Below are positions 4,295-37,092 of a stretch of 37,092 nucleotides of DNA, piece after piece (position 1 is the first letter of the stretch; each line of letters starts with the position of its first letter). Location: the IMG/VR virus record IMGVR_UViG_3300037458_000301, positions 1 to 37,092 of that record. The stretch is one strand, 5' to 3'. The notes beneath the pieces were generated by a model. The model had not been told where the DNA came from. It searched no databases and saw only the letters and a program-made list of their open reading frames with translations. This DNA is from a virus. Lineage: Duplodnaviria; Caudoviricetes. A program made the translations under genes and the position numbers.

Positions 4295-4687
4295 TCATTT
4301 GATTACTCGGTATCCAATGACCTTTGGATCAAAGCAAAAGTGAGACCACTCAACATGACCTGCAAACCGTATGTGTTTGCTTTGGTCAGACAACAACACC
4401 TCAACCTTGACATTGTTAGCTACCGGCGAGCATCCACCCGTCCAAGGAATAAACCCGTGGATGGTCTTGGATTCATCCTTGACCTGCGTCTCCAACTCAA
4501 TGAGCTTTTCAATGTAGTGCTTGGCCTTCCTCAAGTCATCTACTCCGCCTTTGTCTTTCCAGCGGGAAATGTAGCGAACCACGTTACCCTCGAAATATCC
4601 AAGGTTGTTGGCGGCTATATAGTCCCACGGCTGAACAGTCTTGTCTTTGTAGTGGTTGCCGCTGATTTGTGTGTCGTTTGCGCTCAT
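4295..4687 (-). CDS. DUF3310 (SaV-like) protein
   Basis: GNHY...QPWDYI...GNVVRYISRW..KGGVDDLRKAKHY signature. Confidence 0.88.
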   Translation of the reverse strand: MSANDTQISGNHYKDKTVQPWDYIAANNLGYFEGNVVRYISRWKDKGGVDDLRKAKHYIEKLIELETQVKDESKTIHGFIPWTGGCSPVANNVKVEVLLSDQSKHIRFAGHVEWSHFCFDPKVIGYRVIK

Positions 4688-4929
4688 TTTGCCTCCCTTG
4701 CTTTAATCATTGCATCCGCCACGATGTAGCAGTCTCTGGCAATGACTTCTGGGATTTCTTCATCTTGAGCAATGTCTCCACTGTTTAGCCAATCAGTGAT
4801 GACTGCTGGCATCGCCTTGGCCGCGAAGTAATCGCGCAGGGTCATGCCATTGTGGTTGACGTAGGTAGCAGTTTGCATATCCATTGCGCCACTCGGAAAC
4901 GCTGGCCCACCTGTTTTAATCTCGCTCAT
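4684..4929 (-). CDS. Conserved small phage protein (GGPAFP...GMTLRDYFAAKAM family)
   Basis: Recognisable motif; AAGGAG RBS before ATG 4929 (start shortened relative to the ORF track). Confidence 0.85.
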   Translation of the reverse strand: MSEIKTGGPAFPSGAMDMQTATYVNHNGMTLRDYFAAKAMPAVITDWLNSGDIAQDEEIPEVIARDCYIVADAMIKAREAK

Positions 4930-4952: not shown

Positions 4953-5215
4953 GACGGCCCGATAAAGCACGGTTGGCTGTTTGTCCACCTGCCCCGTAGG
5001 GCGGTTGAGGTTGCAAGGTCGCTAACACCTTACCCGTCATGGTGGTGGACTTCCTAGACACGATTTCAAGTCGTGGCGCTTCAGGCTTGTCGAAATCCAC
5101 CCTCATGATGGTGCTGGCCTTTTACATCGCCAGCGCGGATGAATGGCAACCGAGTATCCCCAGTCCTACGCCGACCTTCATGGCTGTGAGCCATGCGTCA
5201 ACACGCTTAACCATT
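4953..5215 (-). ncRNA. Structured RNA cluster of tandem tRNA-sized domains
   Basis: Several closed multi-hairpin domains, a C(UACG)G tetraloop, two stems followed by ACCA; begins 7 nt after a -10 box. Confidence 0.6.
5040..5101 (-). tRNA. Atypical or pseudo tRNA-Ser(UGA)-like unit lacking T and variable arms
   Basis: GGTGGATTTC/GAAGTCCACC acceptor-like stem followed by ACCA; CACGA-CTTGAAA-TCGTG anticodon arm. Confidence 0.5.
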
Positions 5216-5221
5216 GCCTAA

Positions 5222-5251
5222 AGTATAACAAAGTTTTGCGCTCTTGTGCAA
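5222..5251 (-). promoter_or_regulatory. Sigma70-like leftward promoter (late-promoter position)
   Basis: TTGCAC-N18-TATACT with extended TG, just downstream of ninG. Confidence 0.7.
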
Positions 5252-5253
5252 AA

Positions 5254-5805
5254 TTATTGCCCTTTTTTTAGCTCTCTCAGCTTCGCCCGATAAGTCGCGG
5301 CCAAGTCCCTCAGTTCGTCATGGGTGTATTTCTGGCCCTCGTGCGGCCCTTCCAACCAGTCCACTTTGTCTTGACCAATGCGCCTGATTAGCTCTTGCCT
5401 GAAATTTATGAGGTTGCCATGCAGGTGCGTGTTGCAGGCAGAGCATTGCTTCCACACGTTCAGCGGCTCAAACCTCAGTTCAGGCCGTGCGCCCGTGGAT
5501 AGGTAGTGCCCTGCATGGTATTGGCCTGTGTGGTGGCGTCCGCATGAAACACATGGCAGGTCAGCATCCCTCTCACGAATCCAAGCGTTGAAGGCAATCT
5601 GCGCCAGTTTCAGCAACTCAGGCTTGGTTTTCATCGCGTCCAGCTTTCCCCGCACCGCTTTCTTGTCCTGGCGATCTTTTTCCTTGATCGTCTTTTGTGT
5701 CTTTTCCCTTGCTACTTTTAGGCTGCATGGGATGGAACAGACAGATTGAAGTGGGCGGGTCTTGACGTAGAGAGTGCTACACGCCTTGCATTTGTGGAGC
5801 TTCAT
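5254..5805 (-). CDS. ninG: NinG/Rap-like recombination endonuclease
   Basis: CKAC...VCSIPC, AFNAWIRERD..PCVSCG, AGHY, ELRF, QCSACN; ATGA overlap with upstream gene. Confidence 0.92.
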   Translation of the reverse strand: MKLHKCKACSTLYVKTRPLQSVCSIPCSLKVAREKTQKTIKEKDRQDKKAVRGKLDAMKTKPELLKLAQIAFNAWIRERDADLPCVSCGRHHTGQYHAGHYLSTGARPELRFEPLNVWKQCSACNTHLHGNLINFRQELIRRIGQDKVDWLEGPHEGQKYTHDELRDLAATYRAKLRELKKGQ

Positions 5806-6370: not shown

Positions 6371-6606
6371 TTGTTTCCTCTTGCTCGAATGGCGGCGGCG
6401 TAATCTTTTGAGTGCCAATCCCACTGATCTGGCCCTTCATCAGATTCTTCGTCTTTTTGCTCGCACACCTTTGCACACGCCTCTCGTTCCTTTTCGGCTA
6501 CCAAAGCGGCAAATTTTTGCAATTGGTCAACATCGGCGGCCCAAAATCCAATTTTGTCGCGCATCAATGTTTCTTTTGCCATGCTCAAAACTTCATCTTT
6601 AGTCAT
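6367..6606 (-). CDS. Hypothetical protein (EREACAKVCE family), paralog of 15647..15859
   Basis: ATGA overlap; shared motif with the paralog. Confidence 0.75.
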   Translation of the reverse strand: MTKDEVLSMAKETLMRDKIGFWAADVDQLQKFAALVAEKEREACAKVCEQKDEESDEGPDQWDWHSKDYAAAIRARGNK

Positions 6607-6806
6607 TTCATCCCCTTCGGCGCTTGCCCAAAATACCTGTGATACGACTTCCCAAACACCTTCGTTTTCGTGATCGTCCATCCCCTGTCTTTCAGTTCGC
6701 TCATCCGCTTATGTGGGCAGACTGTCCGAGCCTCCATGATTATTTCAAAAGCTGTTACGCCTTTTTTGCGCTTGAGTAATCGCTCGACTGTTGCAATTTG
6801 GTTCAT
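6603..6806 (-). CDS. Small winged-HTH protein
   Basis: GVTAFE...RMSELKDRGWTI pattern. Confidence 0.65.
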   Translation of the reverse strand: MNQIATVERLLKRKKGVTAFEIIMEARTVCPHKRMSELKDRGWTITKTKVFGKSYHRYFGQAPKGMK

Positions 6807-10374: not shown

Positions 10375-10425
10375 TTGCCACGCTTGCAAAATTCTGTTGT
10401 AGAATTGAGGCTCAACAACAGGAGA
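10375..10425 (+). promoter_or_regulatory. Repeated promoter/operator/RBS module, copy B (rightward early promoter)
   Basis: TGCAAAATTCTGTTGTA overlapping TAGAAT, then GAGGCTCAACAACAGGAGA. Confidence 0.75.
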
Positions 10426-10430
10426 TACAG

Positions 10431-13223: not shown

Positions 13224-13265
13224 TGCAAAGTTTTATTGTATAGTAGAGGCTTCAACAACAGGAGA
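13224..13265 (+). promoter_or_regulatory. Repeated promoter/operator/RBS module, copy C
   Basis: TGCAAAGTTTTATTGTA/TATAGT; 13236-13265 identical to 18930-18959. Confidence 0.8.
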
Positions 13266-13269
13266 AAAC

Positions 13270-13404
13270 ATGAAACACAAACCAATGGCAACCTACAACA
13301 GTGATGACCGCAAAGCCGACTTGATGGTGATTGTGGTCTGTGTACTGGCTTCGATTGCAATCGCTGTTATGGCCTACTTTGGCTGGTTGCCGGGCGGTGT
13401 ATGA
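13270..13404 (+). CDS. 44-aa single-TM protein (not in ORF track)
   Basis: AGGAG RBS; MKHKPM...VIVVCVLASIAIAVMAYFGW; ATGA coupling. Confidence 0.75.
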   Translation: MKHKPMATYNSDDRKADLMVIVVCVLASIAIAVMAYFGWLPGGV

Positions 13405-18909: not shown

Positions 18910-18959
18910 TTCACCACTGCAAAAATATGTTGTATAGTAGAGGCTTCAACAACAGGAGA
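18910..18959 (+). promoter_or_regulatory. Repeated promoter/operator/RBS module, copy D
   Basis: TTCACC-N17-TATAGT; TGCAAAAATATGTTGTA; AGAGGCTTCAACAACAGGAGA. Confidence 0.8.
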
Positions 18960-18963
18960 TAGT

Positions 18964-19524
18964 ATGACCACAATTTACAACATCATTTGGCGCTTTTGCT
19001 TTGCAGTTTCTTGCATTTTGTCTTTGATTTTTATGGCGGCTTCGATCTCAAGCGAGACTACAACATCAGCAAGCTACAAAATCTATTCAACAGACATAAA
19101 TGACCGACTCAACTTGGTTGGGGATTGCAAAAAAGAAGATGCTCAAAAATTCTTGACATATACCACTAGTAATGATCGCAGCGTTTTTGTAAACCTTTGC
19201 TTTGCGGCGCACGCTTTCAAAGGAGAAAATGGCAAAGAAGTGATGCTTGTGCCATTTAAAACCAACGAAAAAAACGATTACTGGTGGGGCAACACGCCTT
19301 ACAGCACAGAAGTTATGGAATACACCCAAAAAATGGCTGATTCATTCAAAATGACCGAGCTAGAAGAATCAGTTATTGAAGGCAAATACTGGGATGCCAA
19401 GTGGTCTGACATAGCCCAAATGACAGGTGGCGTTATTGCTGGAAACGCCATTTTTTGGGCTTTGTTTTACGTGATGGTTTGGGTTTTTGTTGGGTTTAAG
19501 AAAAAAGAACGTCAACAAACTTAA
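18964..19524 (+). CDS. Moron-like membrane protein (N- and C-terminal TM around a large loop)
   Basis: AT-rich; own promoter; antisense to the late operon. Confidence 0.8.
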   Translation: MTTIYNIIWRFCFAVSCILSLIFMAASISSETTTSASYKIYSTDINDRLNLVGDCKKEDAQKFLTYTTSNDRSVFVNLCFAAHAFKGENGKEVMLVPFKTNEKNDYWWGNTPYSTEVMEYTQKMADSFKMTELEESVIEGKYWDAKWSDIAQMTGGVIAGNAIFWALFYVMVWVFVGFKKKERQQT

Positions 19525-27464: not shown

Positions 27465-28018
27465 GCCTGAGCTTCCTCTTTCTTTGGTCGTCCGACTTTT
27501 TTCTCAGACACTTCATTCATTTGACGCTGCAAATCGGCAATCATCTCTTTCAATCGCTGATTCTCAGCAGCTTGGGCAGTCTCGCCAGCAGTGCCAGCAG
27601 CGGCCACCAAATAAGCCTTGGCTTTGTTTCGCAAGTCCATGTAGCCCATGCCCATGCGAGACACGTTCAAATCACTCAGGTTTGCCAGTTGTTCAACCGT
27701 GTGAATTTCAAAATACTTGCACTCTTTTACCATCGAGCGTGACATTTGGGGCCATTGCTCCAAGGGCGTTCCTTCGTGGCCTTCGGCTTCGGACGCTTGA
27801 AAACGTGCCCATGCTTTCGGGAATTTCTCTTTGTCAGCGTCAGTGGCTTTTCGTTCAATGATGTTGTTCACATCGCCTGGAACCACGATGCGGACAAAAG
27901 GCACGTCTTTGTAAACAGGACGGCCTTGCTTTTCGCTTTCAGCCTTAATTTCGATTGCGTCAGAATAAAAAGAGACAAACAAGTTTGATTCTTGAGACAG
28001 TTGTTGAGGATTGCTCAC
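27461..28018 (-). CDS. Conserved podophage protein downstream of capsid genes
   Basis: AAGGA RBS, GTG start; VRI.VPGD...FP.AW..F...GTPL..WP. Confidence 0.8.
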   Translation of the reverse strand: MSNPQQLSQESNLFVSFYSDAIEIKAESEKQGRPVYKDVPFVRIVVPGDVNNIIERKATDADKEKFPKAWARFQASEAEGHEGTPLEQWPQMSRSMVKECKYFEIHTVEQLANLSDLNVSRMGMGYMDLRNKAKAYLVAAAGTAGETAQAAENQRLKEMIADLQRQMNEVSEKKVGRPKKEEAQA

Positions 28019-28040
28019 AATGTTTCCTTTGGTTGATTAA

Positions 28041-28074
28041 GAAAGGGGCATAAAGCGCAAACCTTATGCCCCTT
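28041..28074 (-). terminator. Intrinsic terminator after the capsid decoration gene
   Basis: AAGGGGCATAA/TTATGCCCCTT stem followed by TCTT. Confidence 0.7.
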
Positions 28075-28094
28075 CATTTTAACGCTAAGAGACC

Positions 28095-28391
28095 TTAGAC
28101 GCTAGCCTTCTCGAACCAGCCTCGATCGCCAGCAGCCATTGCAGTAGCGGGACTCAAATAAGAGCCGCCAGTTGCGGTAGCCGCAAAGGTCGATGCGTTC
28201 ACGCTACACACAGCGGTAGACGCGGGGATAGCGCCACCAGCTTGAGCGTAAACGTGCAATTTGCCGTCAGAGCCGAACACTTGAGTACCCAGAGCAGCAT
28301 CAGCGGTTTGACCCGCAGCCAATTGAGCAGCGGTAGTGATGCCAACGAGGTCGCAGCCAATTACTGCGGTACGTGAGAATGGAGTTGCCAT
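28095..28391 (-). CDS. Putative capsid decoration/cement protein
   Basis: 98 aa, Ala/Gly/Thr-rich; follows MCP; strong RBS. Confidence 0.65.
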   Translation of the reverse strand: MATPFSRTAVIGCDLVGITTAAQLAAGQTADAALGTQVFGSDGKLHVYAQAGGAIPASTAVCSVNASTFAATATGGSYLSPATAMAAGDRGWFEKASV

Positions 28392-28415
28392 GATTTTTCC
28401 TTAAAAAGTTGAGAC

Positions 28416-28439
28416 AAGAGAAAGGGCCGAAGCCCCTTC
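28416..28439 (-). terminator. Hairpin/terminator after MCP
   Basis: GAAGGGGC-TTCG-GCCCTTTC followed by TCTT. Confidence 0.7.
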
Positions 28440-28441
28440 AA

Positions 28442-29434
28442 TCAATCCGAGAGGACGCCCGAGAACTGAGGGCCGCTGGAGGTCAGAGCACCTGCCCAAC
28501 CATAAAGTTTAATTACAGCATCTTGGTTCACCGATTGACGATCACCACCGATAGCCGTGAAGTTGCGATCCTTGTGAGGACGCAAGAACAGGAACTTCGA
28601 GTTGATGAAGTACATGGTGTTGGTGGGGATAGAACCACCGATACCGCCGTCCAGATACACGTCGCAGTTCAAGCCAGCGCCCATGTATTTGATGGAGGTG
28701 AAACCAGCAGCAGCCGAATCTTCGGAGGTCACACGCTGGATAGCTTGCAACGATTCCAAGAAGAAACGGTAGTAGTTGTTGTCAGCCACGATCATGTCGG
28801 GACGGTCAGTGCCGCGAACCAGTTGAACGGCAACGCGGTTCATGTACGACTGCATATTCGAGGCAGAAGCCGCTGCACCACCATCGGTAGTTGCGTCAAA
28901 CGCCACGTTACGCCAGAAAGCCCAGTTCGCACGGTTGATACCGCCGTAAGTGCCAGTGGTAGGGGTCTTGGAGATAGCAGCAGCCAAACCCACAAGGGCT
29001 TTACCGCCGTTACCAGTACCGTCACCGTACAGGTCGGCGCTGATCTGGTTCACCAGTTGACCTTCGGCCACTTGGATACGGCCTTCCAGCAGGTCGATGA
29101 TCTGCTCTTTACCGCTGTTTTGCAGCATTTCAAAGCCAGAGATAGACACGGCAGCAGCGTACTGCTTCAGGTCAAACTGAGCCGAAGAAATGGGGCTGTT
29201 GGGGGTGATGTCGATGGTGTCGTAGCCAGAGTACGAACCAGCGTTTTGAGTCGATGCATCGTTATAAACGATTTCTTGACGGATAACGGCGCCACCGGAA
29301 ACAGGCTTGACGTTGCCGCGTTGCTTCATTTTCATCAGCAATGCGTTGTTGCGGGTCAAGTTGTCGGCCAGTGCGCCCGAACGGGATTCAATGGTGGTAG
29401 TGAGAATATCACTGATGTTGGCGAAGTTTGCCAT
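28442..29434 (-). CDS. Major capsid protein
   Basis: 330 aa; TTIESRSG.LADN..NNALL, YSGYD, LYGDGT...GL, NQDA motifs; follows the scaffold. Confidence 0.92.
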   Translation of the reverse strand: MANFANISDILTTTIESRSGALADNLTRNNALLMKMKQRGNVKPVSGGAVIRQEIVYNDASTQNAGSYSGYDTIDITPNSPISSAQFDLKQYAAAVSISGFEMLQNSGKEQIIDLLEGRIQVAEGQLVNQISADLYGDGTGNGGKALVGLAAAISKTPTTGTYGGINRANWAFWRNVAFDATTDGGAAASASNMQSYMNRVAVQLVRGTDRPDMIVADNNYYRFFLESLQAIQRVTSEDSAAAGFTSIKYMGAGLNCDVYLDGGIGGSIPTNTMYFINSKFLFLRPHKDRNFTAIGGDRQSVNQDAVIKLYGWAGALTSSGPQFSGVLSD

Positions 29435-36311: not shown

Positions 36312-36676
36312 TTGCCCTTAATTGTGTCTTTCACCTCTTTAGCCACTTCAACAATGTCTTTATTGTCCATGCGGTCAAAGAACTTCACGAAAGCCTTGAT
36401 TACCGTAAACGAAACCAATCCAATTGCGCCGCCAATTGCCATGCTTGTATTGACATCATTGGGATTCATGCCCATGTAAACCGCTAAAGCACCGCCAAAG
36501 ATGATGGATATGCCCACCGCACTACCGCCCACGATACAAGCCGTTGCCGCACGGCCATAACCATCAAGGGCAGGGGTTTTGCGAAGGAATAGAACCAGCA
36601 ACGACATAAACAAAGCACTCAAGCCATAGTTTAACTTTGCAATGATGAAAGAGATAGTCGTTGATAGCGGTTCCAT
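36308..36676 (-). CDS. Holin-like membrane protein (about 3 TM, charged C-tail)
   Basis: Hydrophobic segments with Lys/Asp-rich tail; AAGGA RBS. Confidence 0.7.
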   Translation of the reverse strand: MEPLSTTISFIIAKLNYGLSALFMSLLVLFLRKTPALDGYGRAATACIVGGSAVGISIIFGGALAVYMGMNPNDVNTSMAIGGAIGLVSFTVIKAFVKFFDRMDNKDIVEVAKEVKDTIKGK

Positions 36677-37092
36677 GTTTTTCCTTTAAGAAAGTAGTTA
36701 CAAAGTATTACTTTCCCAATTTTACTCACTTACCTCGACGGCCCCAATAGCACGCCCAGTAATAGGGTCACGTTCCAACACTCGGCGTTTAGGTCGTTTC
36801 ATTTCGTCCACAGCACCAACCAGAACGGCGGCGACTTGACCCAGATTCGAGACAGCTTCGGCAATACCCGCACCCTGTTGAACAGCGGCCTGAGTGATTG
36901 TGTCGGCGATGTTGTCCAGCTTGCCGTTTGAGTCCACGGTGAACTGATTAACGGGCTTGGATTGCGCTTCGGTCTGCATCCGTGCGATTTCCAGCTTTGT
37001 CTCGGATTCGATCTGTGCGCGATAGGCGGCGCGTTGGGTTTCGGCCTCTTGGCGCATCTGTTCCAACTGGATAGCCTGTTGAGCGCGGAATT
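36322..37092 (+). repeat. Terminal direct repeat, copy 2
   Basis: About 93% identical to 1-771. Confidence 0.97.
36722..37092 (-). CDS. 3' end of the portal gene (second allele, truncated by the window edge)
   Basis: Matches the C-terminus of 401..2587 with 4 aa differences. Confidence 0.9.
   Translation of the reverse strand, partial: FRAQQAIQLEQMRQEAETQRAAYRAQIESETKLEIARMQTEAQSKPVNQFTVDSNGKLDNIADTITQAAVQQGAGIAEAVSNLGQVAAVLVGAVDEMKRPKRRVLERDPITGRAIGAVEVSE

Follow-up and report, generated by a model that had tools for sequence, protein, structure and literature searches.

The 300-base gap that follows ninG in the virus record analyzed here carries an array of promoter-proximal, separately folding, conserved non-coding modules, a conclusion supported by folding statistics and by comparison with related loci. 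Judged by their sequences, these modules represent uncatalogued phage RNAs, not tRNAs, and appear to lie in a variable slot of the late-operon leader. Units 1-3 of the array form an optional block, drawn from a widespread mix-and-match kit of RNA parts that is common to unrelated phages. Two compact RNA motifs of this array are absent from Rfam 15 and have covariation support, and near-identical phages provide a natural with/without pair for the module block. The window, i.e., the whole stretch of DNA that was analyzed, is the complete virus record of 37,092 nt. The main features are listed in Table 1.

Table 1. Coordinates of the RNA modules, their cargo arms, and the flanking elements in the window.
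Feature	Position	Strand	Remarks
ninG (Rap endonuclease)	5254..5805	-	PHROG 171; PF05766, E 5.4e-63; gene upstream of the array
Predicted late-type promoter	5222..5250	-	-35-like element 5250-5245, TG 5230-5229, -10 element 5227-5222, predicted +1 at about 5215
Unit 1, three-way-junction motif (motif A) with variable P2 hairpin	5142..5215	-	42 distinct copies, covariation
Unit 1 cargo, mobile arm like a tRNA-Met anticodon arm plus variable loop	5173..5199	-	18 viral copies
Unit 2, conserved CCGC leader and 6-bp hairpin with A-rich loop, then ACCA starting the next stem	5109..5138	-	
Unit 3, long stalk of about 20 bp, interrupted by a 2x2 internal loop, around variable cargo	5034..5112	-	
Unit 3 cargo, 5-bp arm with Ser(UGA)-type anticodon loop	5059..5075	-	absent from the minimum-energy fold here
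Unit 4, resident late-operon leader	4953..5038	-	92% identical in L175; directly at +1 in sister phages
First downstream gene, 81 aa, PHROG 2201	4684..4929	-	behind a purine-rich RBS

Genomic Setting and Predicted Promoter

The gene order of the minus strand is lambdoid-like, with replication genes, ninB, ninG, the 300-base gap, two small genes (the 81-aa gene and then a DUF3310 gene), probable terS, terL, and portal. An alternative ATG at 5106, which would extend the 81-aa gene into the array, was rejected, as a strong RBS precedes position 4929, where matches to the family begin, and this codon is missing from the sister phage. An extended -10 promoter downstream of ninG, proposed in the initial annotation, was confirmed as a sigma-70-like site whose -10 hexamer is preceded by TG. 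This site is kept in the sister phage L175, whereas the adjoining ninG diverges. A promoter scan alone is weak evidence for this site, because the number of promoter-like sites (3 in 3.5 kb, compared with 2.1 in shuffles) is not above chance. An imperfect inverted repeat (5234-5253, minus strand) overlaps the -35 region and might be a site for a regulator. A weak winged-helix ORF was also noticed at 6603-6806.

When ninG is compared with positions 1-492 of L175, the two sequences are near-identical at the 5' end, but their overall identity is about 50%, which points to a break by recombination within ninG. Searches for a Q-family antiterminator, covering 59 ORFs against PHROGs and 24 ORFs against Pfam, gave no match. 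Homologs of the array were absent from 80 loci collected through NinG and from 80 collected through the downstream 81-aa gene. The host may belong to Burkholderiales, to judge from the places where related modules occur.

Folding of the Array

The array folds better than its shuffled controls (z -2.69, 0/200 shuffles as good), in agreement with the earlier description of this region as a series of structured RNA modules, and only 2/71 minus-strand tiles reach this z value in a genome-wide tiling. ARAGORN detected no tRNA in the array, and the search against Rfam 15 gave nothing meaningful there down to E 10, so that neither tool lent support to tRNAs at this place. Similarly, in a Rfam scan of 33 related loci, no module reached the gathering level for any family. 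Some segments may bear a passing likeness to stretches of rRNA.

Unit 1: A Three-Way Junction with Exchangeable Cargo

A search pattern based on the central arm of unit 1 gave 18 viral matches, while patterns restricted to the frame recovered 19 metagenome and 33 viral stretches, which resulted in 42 distinct copies overall. The conserved fold consists of P1 (5215-5211/5146-5142), the base of P2 (5206-5203/5171-5168), and P3 (5165-5159/5154-5148). In an alignment of 36 of the 42 copies, from which near-duplicates were omitted, 92.7% of cells are paired, compared with 30-50% in slid controls. Covariation was found at 8/18 pairs (64 cells with two-sided change), and 0/500 shuffles reached this score, although such shuffle counts overstate independence because the copies are related. 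The invariance of the motif is partly imposed by the search pattern, but the covarying outer P1 and P2 pairs were not fixed by it. Covariation, which had been named among the checks in the initial annotation, is thus strong for unit 1, and it is also present for unit 2. From the 74-nt domain drawn there, the closing stem AATGG/CCATT stands, whereas the inner arms GCGT/ACGC and GGTC/GACT are replaced, as covariation favors the P1/P2/P3 arrangement.

A covariance model of motif A (R1) found 5 further matches, two of them identical, among 73 loci. All five precede terS/terL, in phages whose terminases are about 80% identical. These model-only matches show new compensatory changes in P3, and the junction letters are fixed there too. 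The inner hairpin, on the other hand, is 12-41 nt long, occurs in 38 distinct forms, and is swapped freely. The fixed letters of the junction suggest that it is recognized by a protein or adopts a tertiary fold. Two weaker R1 matches within the window, at 36497-36570 and 176-249, were discarded as coding sequence within the terminal overlap.

The motif A pattern occurred in 0 stretches of the cellular genome collection, and R1 had no match in 3 named genomes. Among 151 genomes sampled from the Delftia family, R1 gave only 1 weak match (26 bits); since there is no counterpart in these genomes, motif A is not an evident copy of a host RNA.

The genomic positions of motif A are diverse. It stands at a predicted promoter/+1 in 13/42 copies, against a random rate of 2.7%, and a U-rich stretch follows it on the 3' side in 13/42 copies according to a crude test run with no control. 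Other copies lie inside arrays, beside tRNA genes, or last in transcription units, with one copy before a probably convergent gene. Many copies directly precede a protein gene, including terS-like genes.

Units 2 and 3: A Hairpin and a Long Stalk in One Frame

Units 2 and 3 form a common frame, in which a short hairpin is followed by a long stem. The ACCA at 5112-5109 forms the first strand of a long stem, which runs 5111-5034 in the window and is predicted to pair with 5041-5034 (pair probabilities of 0.96 or more), and such a stem after unit 2 is found in 8/8 distinct copies, with 13-16 Watson-Crick pairs of 18. The cargo enclosed by these stalks differs between copies and ranges from 44 to 219 nt. 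Because the ACCA opens a long stem in 8/8 copies, it is no tRNA end. Thus, the minihelix GCTGGC-loop-GCCAGC-ACCA recognized earlier is retained as a hairpin and loses its tRNA-type 3' terminus. The unit at 5101-5040, which had been described as tRNA-like and ending in ACCA, could not be maintained, as this second ACCA, whose last base is 5040, shares bases with the 3' strand of the unit 3 stalk, so that no free CCA end is left. In the predicted fold, that putative unit corresponds to the upper half of the unit 3 stalk together with its cargo.

Evidence for unit 2 from sequence variation comes from its outer pair, which reads G-C, C-G, or U-A; this is one informative pair only, and 5/500 shuffles are as good. 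Besides Aeromonas phage ST4 and three viral contigs, unit 2 was recovered from genomes of Delftia, Candidimonas, and Allopusillimonas. The pattern gave seven matches in genomes, from which 3/7 were kept and 4/7 dropped as unpaired chance occurrences. The Delftia, Candidimonas, and Allopusillimonas loci (L451, L453, and L455) and Aeromonas phage ST4 (L273:2030-3070) contain gene-poor arrays of framed RNAs of about 1 kb or more, and L453 carries two unit-2 frames. A match was also seen in Pseudomonas phage HSN4.

The stalks of all 8/8 unit-2 copies contain a helix of at least 11 bp, as needed for RNase III. When the proximal and distal box rules were applied by eye, as far as they are set out in the relevant part of PMC1540722, they fitted some stalks in some registers and not clearly that of the window.

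Likeness to tRNA and the Nature of the Cargo

The resemblance of the array to tRNA is confined to the two cargo arms at 5195-5179 and 5075-5059, each with a 5-bp stem and a 7-nt YU-NNN-R loop; there is no cloverleaf, T loop, or free CCA end. A T arm with a TTCRA loop was not found, the single such 5-mer being located inside the unit 3 stalk, nor was an acceptor stem with unpaired 3' NCCA found in the array. The initial proposal of tRNA mimics with 3' ACCA ends therefore fails in that form, with no T loop, no free CCA end, and negative ARAGORN and Rfam results. What survives from it is the anticodon-arm geometry of the unit 1 and unit 3 cargo, while an enrichment of such arms across cargo in general did not emerge.

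The Met-type arm of unit 1 occurs in 18 viral copies distributed among 4 scaffolds, with 11 in motif A, 5 in a second common scaffold, and 1 each in another array frame and in a permuted tmRNA. These copies have conserved flanks that were not fixed by the search pattern. The loop reads CAC in the window and CAT in 16/18 other copies. When aligned with the anticodon arm and variable loop of the phage tRNA-Met in L400, the unit 1 arm scored better than 200/200 shuffles; no such similarity was found to a second tRNA-Met. The tmRNA in question (L271:1423-1680, minus strand) is a phage permuted tmRNA, in which a 67-nt insertion contains the Met-type arm.

Another framed RNA, scaffold B, is estimated to occur in about 1200 viral stretches. 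It has a fixed internal-loop frame, with 111 distinct inserts in the 120 loci examined (L275-L394), and it is also present in L083, L084, L261, L265, and L266. About 13 members were compared with Rfam and gave no match. The 17-mer of the Ser-type arm of unit 3 recurs in two scaffold-B RNAs and in one atypical tRNA-Ser-like element (3/13 matches); the other 10/13 were set aside as unrelated and mostly in coding context. The atypical element (L092:1470-1570), of the tRNA-Ser(UGA) type with a non-canonical T loop, is located in a tRNA cluster, was missed by ARAGORN and Rfam, and has 20 nt in common with the unit 3 cargo.

A census of scaffold-B cargo gave anticodon-like arms in 5/111 inserts, compared with 2.3 (maximum 6) in shuffles, and 0/34 motif-A cargos found without using the arm contained one; both scans were limited in cargo length and missed longer arm-bearing cargos. 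The scaffold-B census weakened a general model of anticodon display. Borrowed anticodon arms are, on this evidence, one cargo type among many.

Units 1-3 as an Optional and Mobile Block

In the sister phage L175, whose terminase is 99% identical, unit 4 comes immediately after the same promoter, and the segment 5221-5039 is absent. The corresponding joint 5038-5222, in which units 1-3 are missing, was present in contigs of 7/8 sequencing runs, representing 6 data sets. In this count, the tables of X9 and X10 are identical and were treated as one data set. Neither X23, an RNA run with no coverage of the array, nor X22, which is probably DNA, bears on expression. The gain and loss of single units is weakly hinted at by joints in which unit 1 alone or unit 3 alone is missing or replaced, each seen in one contig at 80% likeness.

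The same block occurs at an unrelated locus. In L395 and L397, unit 1, unit 2, and the stalk follow each other in the same order, with near-identical frames and other cargo, within arrays of > 600 nt that lie in a different genomic place, beside a divergent repressor-like gene. The 3' ends of the L395 and L397 arrays resemble an anti-hemB-like sRNA hairpin with a terminator (E 4e-6 and 2e-5, below the gathering score). Relatives of the window phage occupy the same late-leader slot with other module sets. The right junction of the block lies in a short sequence common to the end of the stalk and the start of unit 4, which suggests that the block may have been gained by microhomology recombination.

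Unit 4, the resident leader, begins with a hairpin (5033-5013) that is robust across folds, the remainder being uncertain. The stalk of unit 3 ends in a sequence identical to the closing strand of unit 4 (5038-5034), and because of this coincidence the closing helix of unit 4 is not predicted in the whole array. In the models, the helices of units 3 and 4 thus appear to compete for 5038-5034. Accordingly, in the 86-nt domain assigned earlier to this place, the first hairpin was recovered and the GACGG/CCGTC closure was not. The UNCG loop of unit 4 is replaced in one natural variant (one contig). No distant homolog of unit 4 was found in the related loci examined or in isolate phages.

Comparison with Known Phage RNAs

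Passages of PMC9697503 present RNAC and RNAD of phage T4 (species 1 and 2) as small, folded, late-expressed phage RNAs of unknown function. They are encoded beside tRNA genes, which motif A often adjoins too. The sequences of T4 rnaC and rnaD show no similarity to the window units above shuffles, and rnaC ends in a canonical T arm, which the window units lack. To our knowledge, a design with a fixed frame and swappable inserts has not been described for RNAC or RNAD.

Similarly, GOLLD and ROOL are introduced in parts of a recent preprint (bioRxiv 10.1101/2024.12.08.627333) as structured phage RNAs of unknown function near tRNA islands, sometimes with a tRNA in their variable region. According to the same parts, they are single large folds, GOLLD often exceeding 800 nt, whereas the modules of the window move independently. 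Their Rfam models had no match in the array or in the related loci scanned.

Another comparison concerns AsxR and AgvB, which are sRNAs encoded at the 'moron' site downstream of PR' in lambdoid prophages, as described in portions of Tree et al. 2014 (PMC4104026). The likeness lies in accessory RNAs with a conserved and a variable part, placed in a variable slot downstream of the late promoter. As far as those portions report, the moron-site sRNAs are 51-60 nt long, Hfq-bound, equipped with their own start sites, and active by pairing. The window modules, in contrast, share one predicted promoter, have no terminator, and are accompanied by no Q gene that could be found.

A full-text search, covering mainly open-access papers, found no description of the modules, and the motif strings had no match in it. 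No motif match was found in the part of the supplements of Fremin et al. 2023 (PMC10690425) that was searched, and the motifs may be among the unnamed candidates of that study.

Proposed Function and Alternative Explanations

The reading preferred here, held with somewhat less than even confidence, is that the late leader serves as a cassette slot, the modules of which are transcribed, released, and active in trans as putative protein-binding decoys. The 300 bases after ninG would be the leader of the predicted late operon, in which an optional three-module block from the shared phage kit precedes the resident unit 4. The modules would be transcribed at a high level from the predicted late promoter and probably released by host RNases, the stalk being a candidate substrate of RNase III. 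Once released, they would act as stable decoys that bind host RNA-binding or RNA-cutting proteins. Each module combines a fixed frame (the three-way junction, or the hairpin and stalk) with a swappable insert. Because the stem ends have short sequences in common, whole modules could be gained, lost, or exchanged by recombination. We infer action in trans because motif A is found at +1, inside arrays, beside tRNAs, and at transcript ends. An arms race with host defense proteins that bind or cut RNA is suggested by the hypervariability of the loops.

A broader version of the decoy reading is speculative and rather unlikely to hold in full. It states that proteobacterial phages keep a recombining library of RNA cassettes behind their strongest promoters as an RNA-only counter-defense arsenal, comparable to hotspots of anti-defense genes. 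In this version, some of the inserts would be borrowed from tRNA anticodon arms, and the window phage would have been caught after the uptake of a three-cassette block, which is lacking in its sister strains.

A rather unlikely rival assigns the modules a cis function in the late mRNA, as stabilizers of its 5' end or as processing or punctuation signals, with variation tolerated and not selected. The copies that begin at a predicted +1 speak for it, unit 4 invariably occupies the 5' end of the late leader while units 1-3 can be lost, and a cis role is equally compatible with the many copies that immediately precede terS-like or other genes. A simple hairpin would suffice as a stabilizer, yet the junction letters are fixed, also in the model-only matches, and other copies are last in the transcript or deep in arrays, from 0.6 kb to over 1 kb. 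Less probable still is the idea, raised in the initial annotation, of tRNA mimics whose exposed anticodon arms would serve as decoys for anticodon nucleases. The geometry of both window arms agrees with it, as do the conservation of the Met-type arm in 4 scaffolds and its resemblance to a phage tRNA-Met, the recurrence of the Ser-type arm in a tRNA-like element, and the frequent adjacency of motif A to tRNA genes. These points are set against the lack of a T arm, of a free CCA end, and of any ARAGORN or Rfam tRNA match, and against the cargo counts, which scarcely depart from shuffles within the lengths scanned; moreover, the window loop reads CAC, not CAT, and the Ser arm is missing from the predicted fold.

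The put antiterminators of phage HK022 are structured RNAs placed right after a phage promoter, and a put-like cis antiterminator in place of Q was likewise suggested for this array. We regard this as improbable overall. The shared position behind a late-type promoter, the lack of a Q-family match, the location of L395-type arrays after an early-type promoter, and terminator-like hairpins further along the late operon would all be compatible with it. There is no terminator-like site on the minus strand between 3500 and 7000, however, and comparison of the window units with 433 nt after Q and a 3.6-kb left stretch of HK022, in a record where put is not annotated, gave a best result for unit 4 that was not above shuffles (3/40). 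For units 1-3 such a role is unlikely, because sister phages do without them and unit 1 can also stand last in transcription units, which leaves unit 4 alone as a candidate. Even less credence is given to base-pairing sRNAs of the Hfq type, similar to the lambdoid anti-sRNAs. The site is of the same type, downstream of a late promoter, as far as the portions of PMC4104026 show, and the related L395 and L397 arrays end in the anti-hemB-like element, but the window modules have no terminator or U tail and little single-stranded seed, and it is junctions, not seeds, that are conserved. Finally, a short peptide gene or chance folding has a negligible probability. An ATG does open a 30-codon frame at 5214-5122 in the window, and the z value of the array is only moderate (-2.7). 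This frame, whose conservation would have contradicted the initial annotation, is not conserved: the lengths of the 42 motif A copies are spread roughly evenly across frames (16/11/15 by length modulo 3), a stop lies inside 15/42, an ATG is present in only 17/42, and the stems covary.

The role of non-tRNA small RNAs in phage tRNA clusters and late leaders is an old question. As unit 2 frames are also carried by Aeromonas phage ST4, a cultured phage, and by the genomes of cultured strains of Delftia, Candidimonas, and Allopusillimonas, the role of such RNAs is directly testable. If the modules are decoys, they would represent a modular, RNA-based layer of phage counter-defense.

Other Features of the Window

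Several further features were recorded outside the array. Three cassettes of about 50 nt, each consisting of a promoter and an RBS and ending at a start codon, are located on the plus strand at 10385-10427, 13224-13273, and 18918-18967 and are 86% alike. A 186-aa ORF at 18964-19524 (plus strand) has a weak, below-cutoff match to a beta-trefoil lectin domain (E 0.0014). The two ends of the record (1-771 and 36322-37092) overlap with only 93% identity, suggesting a circular genome assembled across two strain variants. The strongest fold in the genome scan (z -7.5) is found on the minus strand at 27993-28460, with terminator-like hairpins after the major head gene and the next small gene.
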